The position numbers and the translations under genes are program-made. From a virus (taxonomy: Duplodnaviria; Caudoviricetes), in IMG/VR virus record IMGVR_UViG_3300031951_000214, positions 1 through 54,384 of that record: DNA of 54,384 bases, one strand, 5' to 3'. Numbering within the stretch: position 1 is the first letter of the stretch; each line of letters begins with the position of its first letter. The notes beneath the pieces are model-generated. The model was not told the DNA's origin. It ran no database searches and was given only the letters and a program-made list of their open reading frames with translations. Below are positions 2,946-47,171 of this stretch, piece by piece.

Positions 2946-4797
2946 TTTTGAAACGTACTACACCGACACAGACCTTGGGTTCAAAAAGCAGACGACTGAA
3001 GAGTACGTGCGAGACCCTCGGTTTGAGGTCATAGGTGTAAGTGTTCAGGTGGATGCTGAAGACCCAGTTTGGTTTTCAGGGACACATGAACAGATACGTA
3101 AGTTTTTCAAGCAGTTTGACTGGAAGGGTAGTGCTGTCTTGGCGCACAACACGCTGTTCGATGGCGCTATCCTCAGTTGGATTTTTAACATCAAGCCGAT
3201 GGCATTGTTGGATACATTGTCAATGGCGAGAGCATTGCATGGGGTAGATGCAGGTGGTTCACTTGCCGCCCTTGCGAAGCGCTATGAGATTGGGGAGAAG
3301 GGCGATGAGGTTGTCAAAGCAATTAACAAGACACGCTTAGACTTTACAGAAGAAGAGTTGGCACTGTATGGTGAGTACTGTAGGAATGATGTACGCCTGA
3401 CATACAAACTATTCTTGTTGATGATGCCAAGCTTTGACCCTGACGAGTTGAAGTTAATAGACATGACGTTGCGCATGTTCACCGACCCGATGTTGTATGT
3501 GAATCAGGATACCCTGAAAGAGCGATTTGATGACTTGGCAAAAGAGAAATCAGATTTGCTTGCTTCACTGATGACTGACCTTGATTGCGCCACAGAAGAA
3601 GAGGTGCGTGAGAAGCTGTCGAGTAACGCCAAGTTTGCCAAGGTGTTGGAGAAGCTGGGTGTGCCTGTGCCGATGAAGATGAGCGAGAAGCAGAAGAAGG
3701 AAGTGCCAGCGCTTGCGAAGAAGGACGAGGGGTTCATCGCACTGACTGAGAGCGAAGATACTTTTATTCAACACCTGTGCGCTGTGCGTTTGGGGACGAA
3801 GTCTACGCTTGAAACCAAACGACTTGAACGATTCATGGGTATAGGGTTACGCAACAAGGGCAGACTGCCTATCCCGTTGAAGTATTACGGCGCACACACT
3901 GGGCGTTGGTCAGGCACAGACAAGGTGAACTTCCAGAACTTACCGAGCAGGGATGCCAAGAAGAAAGCGCTGAAGAAAGCCATCGTGCCACCTGAAGGCT
4001 ATGTGGTAATTAACTCTGACTCATCGCAGATTGAGGCTCGGGTACTTGCGTGGGTGTCTGGTCAGGAAGATGTTGTCAAGCAGTTTGCTGATGGCGAAGA
4101 TGTCTACTCAATATTTTCATCGTCGGTTTACAACAGGAAGATCACTAAAGCTGATGAGGTAGAACGATTCGTGGGTAAGACATGTATCTTGGGATTGGGC
4201 TTTGGTACAGGGGCGTTGAAGCTACAACACACATTGGCTACAGCTCAACCAGTAAGCGTGAAGCTCCCCGAAGAACAATGCAAAACCATTGTGGGTATTT
4301 ATCGGGAGAAGAATTACAAGATACCTGAACTATGGGGTGACGCTGACAGGATGCTTGACACCATGATGAATGGCAAGATCAAGAAACCAATACAACTTGG
4401 TGAGCATGGTTGTTTGTTCTACGACAACGACGGAGTGATTCTCCCCAATGGTCTGCGCATACGCTACGCCAACTTGAGGCGCATGGACAAGGACGGTAAG
4501 TCACAGATTGTTTACGATTCACGCAGGGGTGAAATCTCAACTTGGGGCGGTAGTATCACAGAAAACGTAGTGCAAGCCCTAGCAAGAATTATCGTGGGTA
4601 AGCAGATGCTTGCCATATCTGAAAGATACAGAGTAGCTTTGACAGTACATGATGCGGCAGTCGTTGTCGTGCAAGAAGACGACGTACCTGAAGCCGTAGC
4701 GTATATCAATAAAGTAATGTCTACCCCACCCGACTGGGCGACAGGCTTGCCAGTGGCATGTGAAACAAAAGTCGGTGCAACCTATGGAGACTGCTGA
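2926..4797 (+). CDS. polA: DNA polymerase family A with 3'-5' exonuclease domain
   Basis: ExoI DFET, HNxxFD, TGRWS, NFQNLP, motif A DSSQIEAR, motif B KTCILGLGFG, motif C VHD. Confidence 0.95.
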   Translation: MSLITLDFETYYTDTDLGFKKQTTEEYVRDPRFEVIGVSVQVDAEDPVWFSGTHEQIRKFFKQFDWKGSAVLAHNTLFDGAILSWIFNIKPMALLDTLSMARALHGVDAGGSLAALAKRYEIGEKGDEVVKAINKTRLDFTEEELALYGEYCRNDVRLTYKLFLLMMPSFDPDELKLIDMTLRMFTDPMLYVNQDTLKERFDDLAKEKSDLLASLMTDLDCATEEEVREKLSSNAKFAKVLEKLGVPVPMKMSEKQKKEVPALAKKDEGFIALTESEDTFIQHLCAVRLGTKSTLETKRLERFMGIGLRNKGRLPIPLKYYGAHTGRWSGTDKVNFQNLPSRDAKKKALKKAIVPPEGYVVINSDSSQIEARVLAWVSGQEDVVKQFADGEDVYSIFSSSVYNRKITKADEVERFVGKTCILGLGFGTGALKLQHTLATAQPVSVKLPEEQCKTIVGIYREKNYKIPELWGDADRMLDTMMNGKIKKPIQLGEHGCLFYDNDGVILPNGLRIRYANLRRMDKDGKSQIVYDSRRGEISTWGGSITENVVQALARIIVGKQMLAISERYRVALTVHDAAVVVVQEDDVPEAVAYINKVMSTPPDWATGLPVACETKVGATYGDC

Positions 4798-44628: not shown

Positions 44629-44902
44629 ACACAATCGTCACGCCTGTGATATTAGTCACATCAACGTAAACGCCTGTGGCAAACAAAATTCCTTCGCCGG
44701 GGATGGGTAGAAGAAACGTGTTTGCCGTGCCTGCGGGGGTGTCAATTTCAAGCTTCAGTGTGCCTGAAGTACTCGTTCCATCATAGAACTTAACCGACCC
44801 TGCGCTTGCCCCCGCAAGACCATATACAGCTTTTACACGGACACGGTAGTCAACCGCTTGTCCGTCTGCCGTTAGTCGCGTTGACTGGACATCATATTGC
44901 AT
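44621..44902 (-). CDS. small virion protein
   Basis: IPGEGILFATGVYV; GGAGG RBS. Confidence 0.7.
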   Translation of the reverse strand: MQYDVQSTRLTADGQAVDYRVRVKAVYGLAGASAGSVKFYDGTSTSGTLKLEIDTPAGTANTFLLPIPGEGILFATGVYVDVTNITGVTIVYG

Positions 44903-44915
44903 GAGCCGCTCCTAA

Positions 44916-45449
44916 TTAGGAATTTGCAAACGGTGTGGCAACAGTACCAGAACCAAGCAAAACACCTGTGACATAGTACTTCAAAGAAGCCAAAACAGTC
45001 ACGGTAATCCAAGAACCTGCTGCTCCACCAGTGGTAGTGCCGTCCAAGTTAATGACATCATTTGCTGCTGCGGGAGCATAACCAGTGGTTGCACCAGAAG
45101 CATCGGTTGCTACCAATAGCAGCGAGCCAACAAATTTATCTGTGCCGTCAGTTTTGATAGCCACGGCAGTTGCGGCGGTTTCTACAAAAAATGTGTAGGT
45201 CGTGCCAACATTGTTCAGAGTATTAGGGTCTTGACCGGGGCCGCTAGAAGTAGGGTTTGCTGTTGCGTTGATGGTTGGCAGGGTAATAATCAAAGTCGCA
45301 TCGTTGGTGCGAATTACCTTACCTGCGTATGTGGCAACATCAAGCGTAACGGTGTTTGTGCCGTTGGCAAGATTAACAACTGTATTTGGGCCTTGGGAAT
45401 AGAAGCCAGCCATTGAACGGACTGGGCCTTGAAACGTAGTGCGAGCCAT
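44916..45449 (-). CDS. virion structural/decoration protein
   Basis: Start MARTTFQGPV at 45449 after TAAGGA. Confidence 0.7.
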   Translation of the reverse strand: MARTTFQGPVRSMAGFYSQGPNTVVNLANGTNTVTLDVATYAGKVIRTNDATLIITLPTINATANPTSSGPGQDPNTLNNVGTTYTFFVETAATAVAIKTDGTDKFVGSLLLVATDASGATTGYAPAAANDVINLDGTTTGGAAGSWITVTVLASLKYYVTGVLLGSGTVATPFANS

Positions 45450-45454
45450 GTTTT

Positions 45455-45535
45455 TTTCCTTACATGCAAGTGGAGGTGTATCAATCTGCATGTCGTCAGC
45501 CGGGACTGTTTGATACACCGGAGAACCCCGGAATG
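45455..45535 (-). ncRNA. structured pseudoknotted RNA downstream of capsid gene (candidate Mu-gpT-DE-type motif)
   Basis: 10-bp stem 45475-45484/45510-45519, with two further pairings from its loop. Confidence 0.6.
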
Positions 45536-45550
45536 GTTGCAATATACACC

Positions 45551-45580
45551 AAAAGAAAAGGGGGCACAAGGCCCCCTTTC
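45551..45580 (-). terminator. intrinsic terminator after major capsid gene
   Basis: aaagggggc-cttgt-gccccctttt followed by ctttt on the - strand. Confidence 0.85.
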
Positions 45581-45587
45581 CGGTTTA

Positions 45588-46499
45588 TCAGGCAGTGCCT
45601 GAAGAACCAAACATACCCAGAGGGTCAGACCAGCCGAAGCTGTAACGCTCACGGGCCTTGTAACGCACGTTGCCGGTATCGAAGTCGCCGTCCATGCTGT
45701 TAGACAGCGGAGTACGAACGAAGTGCTTCAGACCGTTTGGCACGTCTGTAGTCAAGAACCAAGCGTTGGTGTCTGTCAAGAAGTGGTTGACAGTGTAGCC
45801 GCCGGGAATTGCGCCCATTTGCTTGATGGCGTTGATGTCGTTGTCCGCTGTAGACACACGCAGTTCGGTGTCTAACAAACGTTTAGCGACAAACATCAAG
45901 TTTGGAGGAACAATCATCTTGACAGGCTTGGCTGCAATCAACAAACCACGCTCATCAGTCCAAGCAGCGATCTGGATAACGGCGGCTTCCAAAGAAGTCT
46001 CGTTCAAATCAACTTGGGTAGAGGGAGTGTTGCTGTTGACACCGCCAGTAATCAAGGGGTGGCTGGTATTAAACAAAGACACGCCGTCGCCACCGGGGTA
46101 GCTAGAGCTAAAGCCATTGTTCAGGACGGCAGCAGCCTTGACCTGTTTGGTGTAAGCCATAGCGCGAGCCAATGACTTGGTGTAACGAGACGACAAGCTG
46201 TCGTACAAGTTATCTTCAATCGCTTCTTCAGTGATTGAGAAACCCAAGGCGATGGTTTCGTGCGTATAGCGGGTTGACCATGCCTCTTGTGCATTGTCAT
46301 AAGCGATGGCAGAACCTTCGTTTTTGACTGGTGCAGCAGAAAAGCCGGACAGTTTGGTTTCTTCTTCAAAAGAACGCTCAGAAGTCTCAGTTTCGTAGAT
46401 TTCTTTGTGTTCTTCACCGTAGCGAGCATACTCCATACCGAACAAAGCGTTCAATCCGGGGAGCAACTCTTTCAGCAGTTGTGCGCGTGAAATAGCCAT
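45588..46499 (-). CDS. major capsid protein (HK97 fold, Mu gpT-like)
   Basis: MAISRAQLLKELLPGL, GGDGVSLF..SHP, NHFLTD..AWF, RYKARERYSFG.SD. Confidence 0.9.
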   Translation of the reverse strand: MAISRAQLLKELLPGLNALFGMEYARYGEEHKEIYETETSERSFEEETKLSGFSAAPVKNEGSAIAYDNAQEAWSTRYTHETIALGFSITEEAIEDNLYDSLSSRYTKSLARAMAYTKQVKAAAVLNNGFSSSYPGGDGVSLFNTSHPLITGGVNSNTPSTQVDLNETSLEAAVIQIAAWTDERGLLIAAKPVKMIVPPNLMFVAKRLLDTELRVSTADNDINAIKQMGAIPGGYTVNHFLTDTNAWFLTTDVPNGLKHFVRTPLSNSMDGDFDTGNVRYKARERYSFGWSDPLGMFGSSGTA

Positions 46500-46514
46500 G
46501 ATTTAAGCTCCTGT

Positions 46515-47171
46515 TTAAACGCCAGAGGCGATAGTGGTTGTATGAATCTCAAAGTTCCAACGAACGATGAGTTCGGGGAACACCACGTTGCCAGAACCAT
46601 TGACATAAGATGTCTCAGGCACAACGTCAACGACGTTCATGGGCAGTGTTCCTGTGGTTGCAGACGCTGCAACGGCTACTCGGCTGTCGCCTGTAGCTGT
46701 CAAACCAGTGTTCTGAACCAATTCCACGTTTGTACCAATAACGGTAAATTGCGTGGTAGATGACGGCAACAAACCAGAAGTTGCATCATCAGCAGTAGTA
46801 CCTGTAGCAATCACAGCCTTGAACAAGGTGTCAGGGTCATTACACACATAAGCGGTAATAACTGTACCTGTTGGAGCAGTAGTGTTTGCAGGATAGTACT
46901 GAGAGAAAATGACCTGACCTTGCGCGTTAACGTAAGAGCAGCCCATGAAAACGCCCATGATTTGTGAAGTTGTCACAGTTGCACGAGCGGACGTGATGGC
47001 AGATTTGATAATCGTGCCGGTGTTTACCATTTCTACAGCATCACCAAAAAAGATGGAGGTGTTGTAGGCCGAGGCAATCCGATACTGACGAGTAGCGCCC
47101 GCGAAGGGTGTACCGCCGTATAGATTGATCGGCTTCAAACCATAAGGTTTATCTACCGTTGGGTAAGCCAT
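46515..47171 (-). CDS. capsid-associated (decoration/cement) protein
   Basis: PYGLKP, GVFMGCSY, DPDTLF; directly upstream of the MCP. Confidence 0.65.
   Translation of the reverse strand: MAYPTVDKPYGLKPINLYGGTPFAGATRQYRIASAYNTSIFFGDAVEMVNTGTIIKSAITSARATVTTSQIMGVFMGCSYVNAQGQVIFSQYYPANTTAPTGTVITAYVCNDPDTLFKAVIATGTTADDATSGLLPSSTTQFTVIGTNVELVQNTGLTATGDSRVAVAASATTGTLPMNVVDVVPETSYVNGSGNVVFPELIVRWNFEIHTTTIASGV

Follow-up and report, generated by a model that had tools for sequence, protein, structure and literature searches.

What lies between the major capsid gene of a phage and the gene behind it, and does this interval act on that gene? The question is raised by the IMG/VR virus record IMGVR_UViG_3300031951_000214 (Duplodnaviria; Caudoviricetes), of which positions 1 to 54,384 were analysed; this whole stretch is referred to here as the window. 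An earlier note had described, between the terminator of the capsid transcript and the next gene, a stem whose loop could pair both with an upstream segment and with a segment abutting the ribosome-binding site, and had offered a translational switch, a ribozyme-like element, a packaging-related RNA or identity with the Rfam motif Mu-gpT-DE as explanations. The interval contains a compact RNA with two pseudoknots and unusually clear covariation, built of four helices on the minus strand of the window (45531–45462) and about 72 nucleotides (nt) long. Its most probable role, to which a probability of roughly 0.6 is given, would be that of a cis-acting 5′ leader governing the translation and message stability of the unit that starts after the capsid gene, as judged from sequence comparisons.

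A four-helix RNA with two pseudoknots

The stem, both loop pairings, a TATATT box, the capsid terminator and the position of the ribosome-binding site, all pointed out by the earlier note, are present on the minus strand. Three helices of the structure as first described stand, but a helix of three base pairs (helix C, CAG/CUG) and a set of invariant junction bases had been missed. The RNA consists of the following parts.

45531–45526, minus strand: 5′ strand of helix A, CCGGGG, pairing with the loop of hairpin C to form pseudoknot 1
45519–45510, minus strand: 5′ strand of helix B, GGUGUAUCAA, whose partner is UUGAUACACC
45509, minus strand: junction base A between helices B and C, an A in 65 of 69 aligned elements
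45508–45497, minus strand: hairpin C, with CAG at 45508–45506, loop UCCCGG at 45505–45500 and CUG at 45499–45497
45505–45500, minus strand: UCCCGG, at once the 3′ strand of helix A and the entire 6-nt loop of hairpin C
45496–45494, minus strand: junction ACG leading from helix C to helix D (A in 69/69, C in 67/69 and G in 51/69 elements)
45493–45487, minus strand: 5′ strand of helix D, ACAUGCA, whose partner is UGCAUGU
45486–45485, minus strand: junction GA leading from helix D to the 3′ strand of helix B (G in 66/69, A in 68/69)
45484–45475, minus strand: 3′ strand of helix B, UUGAUACACC
45474–45469, minus strand: unpaired hexanucleotide before the 3′ strand of helix D
45468–45462, minus strand: 3′ strand of helix D, UGCAUGU (pseudoknot 2), directly adjoining the Shine-Dalgarno sequence

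The strands follow one another in the order A, B, C, A′, C′, D, B′, D′. Helix B encloses hairpin C together with the 5′ strand of helix D, and the 3′ tail returns to make helix D. Conserved bases outside the helices are few, with about seven invariant; the near-invariant ones at the junctions are A45509, A45496, C45495, G45486 and A45485, and the fixed unpaired bases (A, AC and GA) all lie at the meeting point of helices B, C and D. The closing C-G pair of hairpin C is found in 69 of 69 aligned elements.

For the predicted transcript of the window, energies of −12.4 kcal/mol for helices B and C, −14.0 kcal/mol for helices A and D and −18.1 kcal/mol for the best nested fold were obtained, a comparison of pseudoknotted and nested folds that is suggestive only. 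The nested minimum-free-energy fold of 45560–45440 is no better than those of shuffled sequences (z +0.52, with 137 of 200 shuffles equal or better), and folding of the single sequence, whose stability is ordinary, fails to recover the four-helix structure. Since the window sequence alone shows nothing beyond chance, proof was sought in homologs.

The homolog set comprised 80 IMG/VR loci with capsid proteins 84–99% identical to that of the window, and the 200 nt following the capsid gene were read in each. Most of these freshwater loci hold a recognisable homologous element in which pairing is kept while the sequences change. Because plain MAFFT alignment shifts helix A and the 3′ strand of helix D by 1–3 columns, alignments guided by covariance models of half the structure were used: two were made, each fitted to two helices, and the two remaining helices were counted unfitted. 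A first scan with a helix descriptor, which returned hundreds of matches, was dropped as far too permissive.

Alignment A4, fitted to helices B and C, 69 rows: paired cells 80% in A, 96.8% in B, 100% in C and 73% in D
Alignment A10, fitted to helices A and D, 52 rows of which 49 are distinct: paired cells 99.2% in A, 91.3% in B, 100% in C and 99.3% in D

In A10, both sides change in 21 of the 24 pairs, including four of five in helix A, all six in helix D and all ten in the unfitted helix B. Over the whole structure 96.1% of its cells are paired as against 73.6% in shuffles, none of 500 shuffles matches either the observed percentage paired or the covariation score, and sliding the partners against each other leaves 26–38% paired. 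The underlying model, R3, misses the CUAGG and UAGUAG subfamilies; A10 accordingly contains no rows with a UAGUAG-type helix D and just three of the CUAGG type (L019, L020 and L021), most of the latter being absent, and both subfamilies are present in A4. There, too, all ten pairs of helix B change on both sides. The unfitted helices A and D are partly misaligned in A4, and slid partners still give just 27–44% for the whole structure. The middle pair of hairpin C alone occurs as AU in 34, UA in 26, CG in eight and GC in one of the 69 elements.

Helix A is represented by CUAGG/CCUAG, CUGGG/CCCAG, CCAAG/CUUGG, UCGGG/CCCGA, CCAGG/CCUGG and CUCGG/CCGAG. An element parser found five of five helix A pairs in 56 of 64 distinct elements and four of five in the other eight, whereas five of five pairs are reached in 23% of cases when the loops are swapped in from other elements; helix D has at least 6 base pairs in 62 of the 64. 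Among the 858 cells of helices B and C, 52 are G·U and 4 are A·C, an excess which argues for selection on the RNA of the gene strand and not on DNA. All four helices are supported by covariation across related viral contigs, and the proposal of a double pseudoknot reaching the ribosome-binding site is upheld by the homologs in both cross-fitted alignments. On this comparative evidence the double pseudoknot is confirmed as real and under selection as RNA. A role in packaging, for which the earlier note had also allowed, is unsupported in view of the preponderance of G·U over A·C and of the fixed place of the element between promoter and start codon.

The 5′ strand of helix A has a second potential partner. 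Within 45518–45531 (minus strand) of the window, CCGGGG can alternatively pair with a CCGG that lies just before and inside the start of helix B, and in loci L041 and L066 the three stretches concerned co-vary (CCAGG, CCUGG and CCUGG). This alternative pairing, which could represent a folding intermediate or a switch, is missing from the CUAGG, CUGGG and marine subfamilies.

Between a −10 box and a Shine-Dalgarno sequence

The surroundings of the element in the window are as follows.

46499–45588, minus strand: major capsid gene, 303 amino acids (aa), the upstream neighbour, outside the RNA
45581–45555, minus strand: strong intrinsic terminator of the capsid transcript, a stem of 11 pairs (seven of them G-C) followed by a T run
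45546–45541, minus strand: −10 box TATATT, recognised by sequence, ending 9 nt before helix A
45534–45532, minus strand: predicted 5′ end of the transcript, placed by its spacing from the −10 box
45461–45457, minus strand: Shine-Dalgarno sequence AAGGA, 0 nt after helix D
45449–44916, minus strand: downstream gene, 177 aa, with its AUG at 45449, encoding a probable capsid-surface (cement- or spike-like) protein

The usual distance from a −10 box to the start of transcription is about 7 nt. With −10 boxes located 8–10 nt before helix A, 1–3 free nt are therefore predicted ahead of this helix. Among the 65 elements with enough upstream sequence, 63 have a −10-like hexamer ending 4–12 nt before helix A, as against 172 of 1280 random positions (13%), and the gap between hexamer and helix is 8–10 nt in 55 of the 63. 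A full −35/−10 pair precedes 24 of the 65 elements and 25 of the 1280 random positions (2%). No phage RNA polymerase was found among the Pfam matches of 20 large open reading frames (ORFs), which makes use of the host polymerase plausible. Six metatranscriptome runs contain 21–40% of the sampled words of 44900–46600, and the element is covered in two of the four runs that were mapped (X15 and X20), by assembled contigs only, from which neither ends nor strand nor a usable level can be read. In one X15 contig 45528 is joined directly to 45598, with terminator and promoter missing; this contig probably derives from a relative with a different spacer.

A position this close to the promoter bears on two alternative explanations. 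A ribozyme that shortens the message at its 5′ end by self-cleavage would share with ribozymes of the hepatitis delta virus (HDV) type a double-pseudoknot fold with few conserved bases; the order of the helices is unlike that of HDV-like ribozymes, however, cleavage would remove just a few bases with the promoter 8–10 nt away, and even at E≤10 none of the ribozyme families in Rfam 15 gives a match. This explanation, and with it the ribozyme-like element of the earlier note, is highly improbable. Processive antitermination through about 32 kilobases (kb) of minus-strand late genes, as brought about by the put RNAs of HK022, is also improbable, if less so. Like put, the element is a folded, cis-acting phage RNA that lies close to the promoter at the start of a long operon, and its fixed place right after the promoter puts it in front of the same-strand structural genes from 45449 down to 13417. 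Yet no strong intrinsic terminator turned up when the minus-strand genes below 45450 were scanned, put RNAs consist of two stem-loops and are not known to form pseudoknots or to touch a Shine-Dalgarno sequence, and the way in which helix D overlaps the Shine-Dalgarno sequence suggests an effect on the ribosome rather than on the polymerase. The far end of this block of structural genes is occupied by an ORF of 2029 aa (19506–13417, minus strand) with an LPD38 domain (large polyvalent protein associated).

In the 64 freshwater elements helix D adjoins the Shine-Dalgarno sequence without a gap in 41, overlaps it by at least 2 nt in 11 and stands 2–5 nt away from it in a further 11, according to our own parser, which left one row unparsed and misread a few (L043, L021 and L047, for example). 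Overlaps are exemplified by GCAUGAGG paired with CUUCAUGC and by UUGAGG paired with CCUCAA. The copies of a marine clade behave alike, the 3′ strand of helix D, CUAGG, running into AGGAG in 30 of 30 matches. Proximity or overlap of helix D with the Shine-Dalgarno sequence is a trait of the family, and the 3′ strand of a covarying pseudoknot helix is placed here as it is in sequestering pseudoknot leaders. The earlier proposal of a translational switch is compatible with this contact; the switching itself would be a prediction from sequence.

As a leader, the RNA would keep the Shine-Dalgarno sequence either at the base of pseudoknot helix D or within it. A 30S subunit would then bind just when helix D opens, which would set or limit the translation of the first gene. 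In addition, pairing of the 5′ end within about 3 nt of the start would shield the message from 5′-end-dependent decay. In the SAM-II and preQ1 riboswitches and in rpsO, initiation is repressed by the 3′ strand of a pseudoknot covering the Shine-Dalgarno sequence, and 5′-terminal pairing that leaves no more than about 2–4 free nt stabilises mRNAs in Escherichia coli. In the predicted geometry, the 5′ strand of helix A would take up the whole 6-nt loop, with one base on the 5′ side of the loop and none on its 3′ side, the spacing characteristic of fully paired kissing loops. Helix A would stack on helix C with the 5′ end tucked in at the nick, and the 3′ tail would go back along helix B to form helix D at the junction, such that the Shine-Dalgarno sequence would emerge from the core of the fold. 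The element may thereby provide a model for one small RNA that ties the 5′ end of a message and its ribosome-binding site into a single structure.

Several points, besides the parser errors given above, weigh against a leader of this kind. In 41 of the 64 elements the Shine-Dalgarno sequence lies beside helix D and not inside it, and occlusion in these cases is a guess. A sigma-70 scan calls no site anywhere in 44800–46600, and at the element of the window the −35 position reads just TTGTGC, a match at three of six bases. A capsid-surface protein is presumably needed in bulk, which fits a purely inhibitory leader poorly. Finally, a plain hairpin would be enough to protect a 5′ end, and the complexity of the fold together with its invariant junction bases therefore suggests a further function. 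The TTGTGC hexamer (45569–45564, minus strand) sits in the loop of the capsid terminator, so that terminator and promoter overlap.

One alternative is a riboswitch, in which a small molecule bound at the three-way junction of helices B, C and D would stabilise helix D over the Shine-Dalgarno sequence. The clustering of the invariant unpaired bases at one junction would suit this possibility, as would the covarying alternative pairing of helix A in the subfamily of the window (CCAGG with CCUGG in L041 and L066) and the varying overlap of helix D with the Shine-Dalgarno sequence, which resembles the expression platforms of known pseudoknot riboswitches. It is nonetheless unlikely, given that so few bases are invariant outside the helices, that the alternative hairpin is missing in the CUAGG, CUGGG and marine subfamilies, that a capsid-surface gene offers no obvious metabolite logic and that no riboswitch family of Rfam matches.

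With the same low probability, the junction (A, AC and GA) might belong to a new class of aptamer that responds, in late infection, to a small molecule or to a signal of the state of assembly; this response would close helix D over the Shine-Dalgarno sequence and so time or dose the capsid-surface protein. The carriers of such an aptamer would be very abundant freshwater and marine phages, and signal sensing, if true, would reveal how capsid decoration is tuned in phages that infect SAR11-type and lake bacteria. A variant, whose slim chance is counted jointly with that of the aptamer, would see in a ring-like capture of the 5′ end the bacterial counterpart of nuclease-resistant viral RNAs.

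The downstream gene and known RNAs

An ORF of about 200 aa is inserted between the capsid gene and the element in 16–17 freshwater loci. At these loci the element follows the insert and still stands directly before the next gene, and promoters of the type TTGACA-N16/17-TATAAA precede the element, overlapping the end of the insert. The element belongs with the downstream gene, and its link to the capsid gene is indirect. The inserted ORF, present for instance in L010, L013, L021, L030, L033, L034, L047, L051, L062, L065, L072, L079 and L080, has a conserved N-terminus (PKTR.EAKA.GA..YFTGEPC.HGH), and the single representative tested against Pfam (L010) gave no match. It has a −10 box of its own and a short leader hairpin, CCUGUG..CACAGG, within 90–120 nt after the capsid stop codon. 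The 3′ arm of this hairpin runs into the Shine-Dalgarno sequence, and the hairpin looks like a second, simpler conserved leader.

The 177-aa product of the downstream gene in the window has no sequence match in Pfam, PHROG or the PDB. An AlphaFold2 model based on 22 homologs is rich in beta structure (predicted local distance difference test score, pLDDT, 76), and its best fold match in the PDB is the capsid spike of Pseudomonas phage Pa223 (9ny6_C, E 5.3e-4, template modelling score 0.37). Its positional counterparts are annotated as ‘cement protein’ in Phage DSL-LC04 and as ‘minor capsid protein’ in Planktothrix phage Pag-Yong1. The product is probably a capsid-surface protein of the cement or spike type, the support from the modelled fold being weak to moderate. 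Across the family, the products of the first gene after the element fall into at least three types by their N-terminus (TTFxGPV, GFATHLGPW and STTQSIW). Pairwise BLASTP shows no similarity between the types (E 0.36 and 0.22), which are mixed with respect to the RNA subtypes. With at least three dissimilar protein types behind one RNA, the RNA is better conserved than the protein downstream of it.

This observation bears on a protein operator, in which the capsid-surface protein, another late phage protein or a host factor would bind the fold and repress translation, matching synthesis to assembly as with T4 gp32 or the scaffolding protein of P22. Pseudoknots in autogenous phage leaders are of a known kind, T4 gene 32 being cited in parts of the text of PMC10690425, and the element does reside within the head-assembly module. 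The occurrence of at least three dissimilar downstream proteins behind the same RNA, mixed with the RNA subtypes, stands against such an operator, which is doubtful and less likely than a riboswitch. The leader pseudoknots of T4 gene 32 and of E. coli rpsO (S15) resemble the element in that a 5′ leader governs initiation of the gene behind it. They differ in binding their own gene product, whereas the proteins downstream of the element are dissimilar.

Membership of the Mu-gpT-DE motif had been suggested by the earlier note from the position of the element downstream of a gpT-like capsid gene. The capsid protein of the window does match Mu-like_gpT (4.3e-09) besides Phage_capsid_4 (9.4e-15) in Pfam and the major head protein family PHROG 371, a sequence search of the PDB giving no match, and Mu-gpT-DE is likewise located near genes for Mu gpT-like major head proteins. 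Its accession is RF03012, as given in a portion of PMC7657543. This family comprises 53 positions with a gathering score of 49 bits, in contrast to an element of about 72 nt with four helices and two pseudoknots which is tied to the promoter and start codon of the next gene and tracks that gene, not the capsid gene. When RF03012 was searched directly, 15 candidates were scored and none matched in the window at E≤10. Nor did it appear in a permissive scan of 45350–45650 with Rfam at E≤10, where all 11 weak matches fell on the terminator. At the gathering score, Rfam 15 gave no family in the window or in 20 homologous loci. Identity with Mu-gpT-DE therefore has next to no probability.

In the SAM-II, preQ1-I and preQ1-II riboswitches the Shine-Dalgarno sequence lies next to or within the 3′ strand of a pseudoknot, with varying overlap, as it does in the element. 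The element differs from them in lacking an Rfam match, in having a second pseudoknot that takes in the 5′ end and in the small number of its conserved bases. With the 5′ stabiliser stem-loops of the ompA type it has in common the pairing within about 3 nt of the predicted 5′ end, but it is far more elaborate than the ompA leader and reaches the ribosome-binding site.

A survey of IMG/VR, the same data source as that of the element, reported 8,495 candidates for structured RNAs, of which many lie immediately before genes (Fremin et al. 2023, PMC10690425, from portions of the article). Those portions of its text do not describe the element, which may be catalogued in the alignments of that survey without a name or a pseudoknot model. 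The literature search yielded no published description, parts of PMC10504331 being likewise silent, with the supplements of PMC5737381 and PMC10690425 outside its scope. The main text of PMC5737381 does not mention gpT, the description of Mu-gpT-DE being in its supplements. Family and fold appear to be undescribed, within the known class of structured 5′ leaders that contact the Shine-Dalgarno sequence, and would enlarge the small set of phage-encoded cis-regulatory RNAs by a new fold.

Distribution in freshwater and marine phages

At E≤0.1 a covariance model of helices B and C alone (R1) found one copy of the element per source, in the window as well as in 68 of the 81 other sources. A second model, R2, added L011, L016, L037, L038, L065 and L069, which brings the count to 74 of the 80 freshwater loci. 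The element is on the gene strand in every copy and occurs as a single copy per locus. Five of the six loci devoid of a match have a short sequence after the capsid gene (38, 49, 81, 235 and about 400 nt); in L071 about 570 nt follow the capsid gene, and these gave no match to the models. An exact search with an 18-base core returned at least 120 IMG/VR contigs, each with one copy. Of these, 79 core-matched contigs were read, and a capsid homolog lies upstream in all 62 that extend at least 1 kb in this direction, at a distance of up to 250 nt in 48 and further away in 14.

Beyond these contigs, R2 matches directly before the gene annotated as ‘cement protein’ in Phage DSL-LC04 (50.5 bits, E 2.4e-11) and, more weakly, before gp62 in Pelagibacter phage HTVC027P (20.6 bits, E 0.009). 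The former is a deposited complete lake-water genome and the latter a phage whose host is named, which makes experiments possible. A marine set of 80 loci was fetched with the capsid protein of HTVC027P as query. R2 found one copy in 30 of the 80 at E≤1, 23 of them at E≤0.01, many of the loci devoid of a match being short. The marine copies are always downstream of the capsid gene and on the same strand. This clade is AT-rich, with CUAUAC/GUAUAG as helix A and CCUAG/CUAGG as helix D; in its helix B 96.9% of the cells are paired and eight of ten pairs change on both sides, independent support for the covariation.

R2 gave no match in Pag-Yong1, Alcaligenes phage QDWS535, Roseobacter phage CRP-902, 023Pt_psg01 and Caudoviricetes MW202785. 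In 023Pt_psg01 (L086, about 4195–4293) a copy of the marine type can be recognised by eye, with CUAUAC/GUAUAG, a helix B of 10 base pairs and CCUAG/CUAGG leading into the Shine-Dalgarno sequence; it was not counted. CRP-902 (L085, 3740–3830) perhaps has a reduced copy, likewise seen by eye and not counted, in a shorter leader where pairing is possible between CUGUCU, close to the 5′ end, and AGACAG, located at the Shine-Dalgarno sequence. The GC-rich phage Pag-Yong1 (L081, 4904–5007) has a spacer between capsid and minor capsid genes that is devoid of the element and contains two other G+C-rich hairpins, one of them with GACUGAC in its loop.

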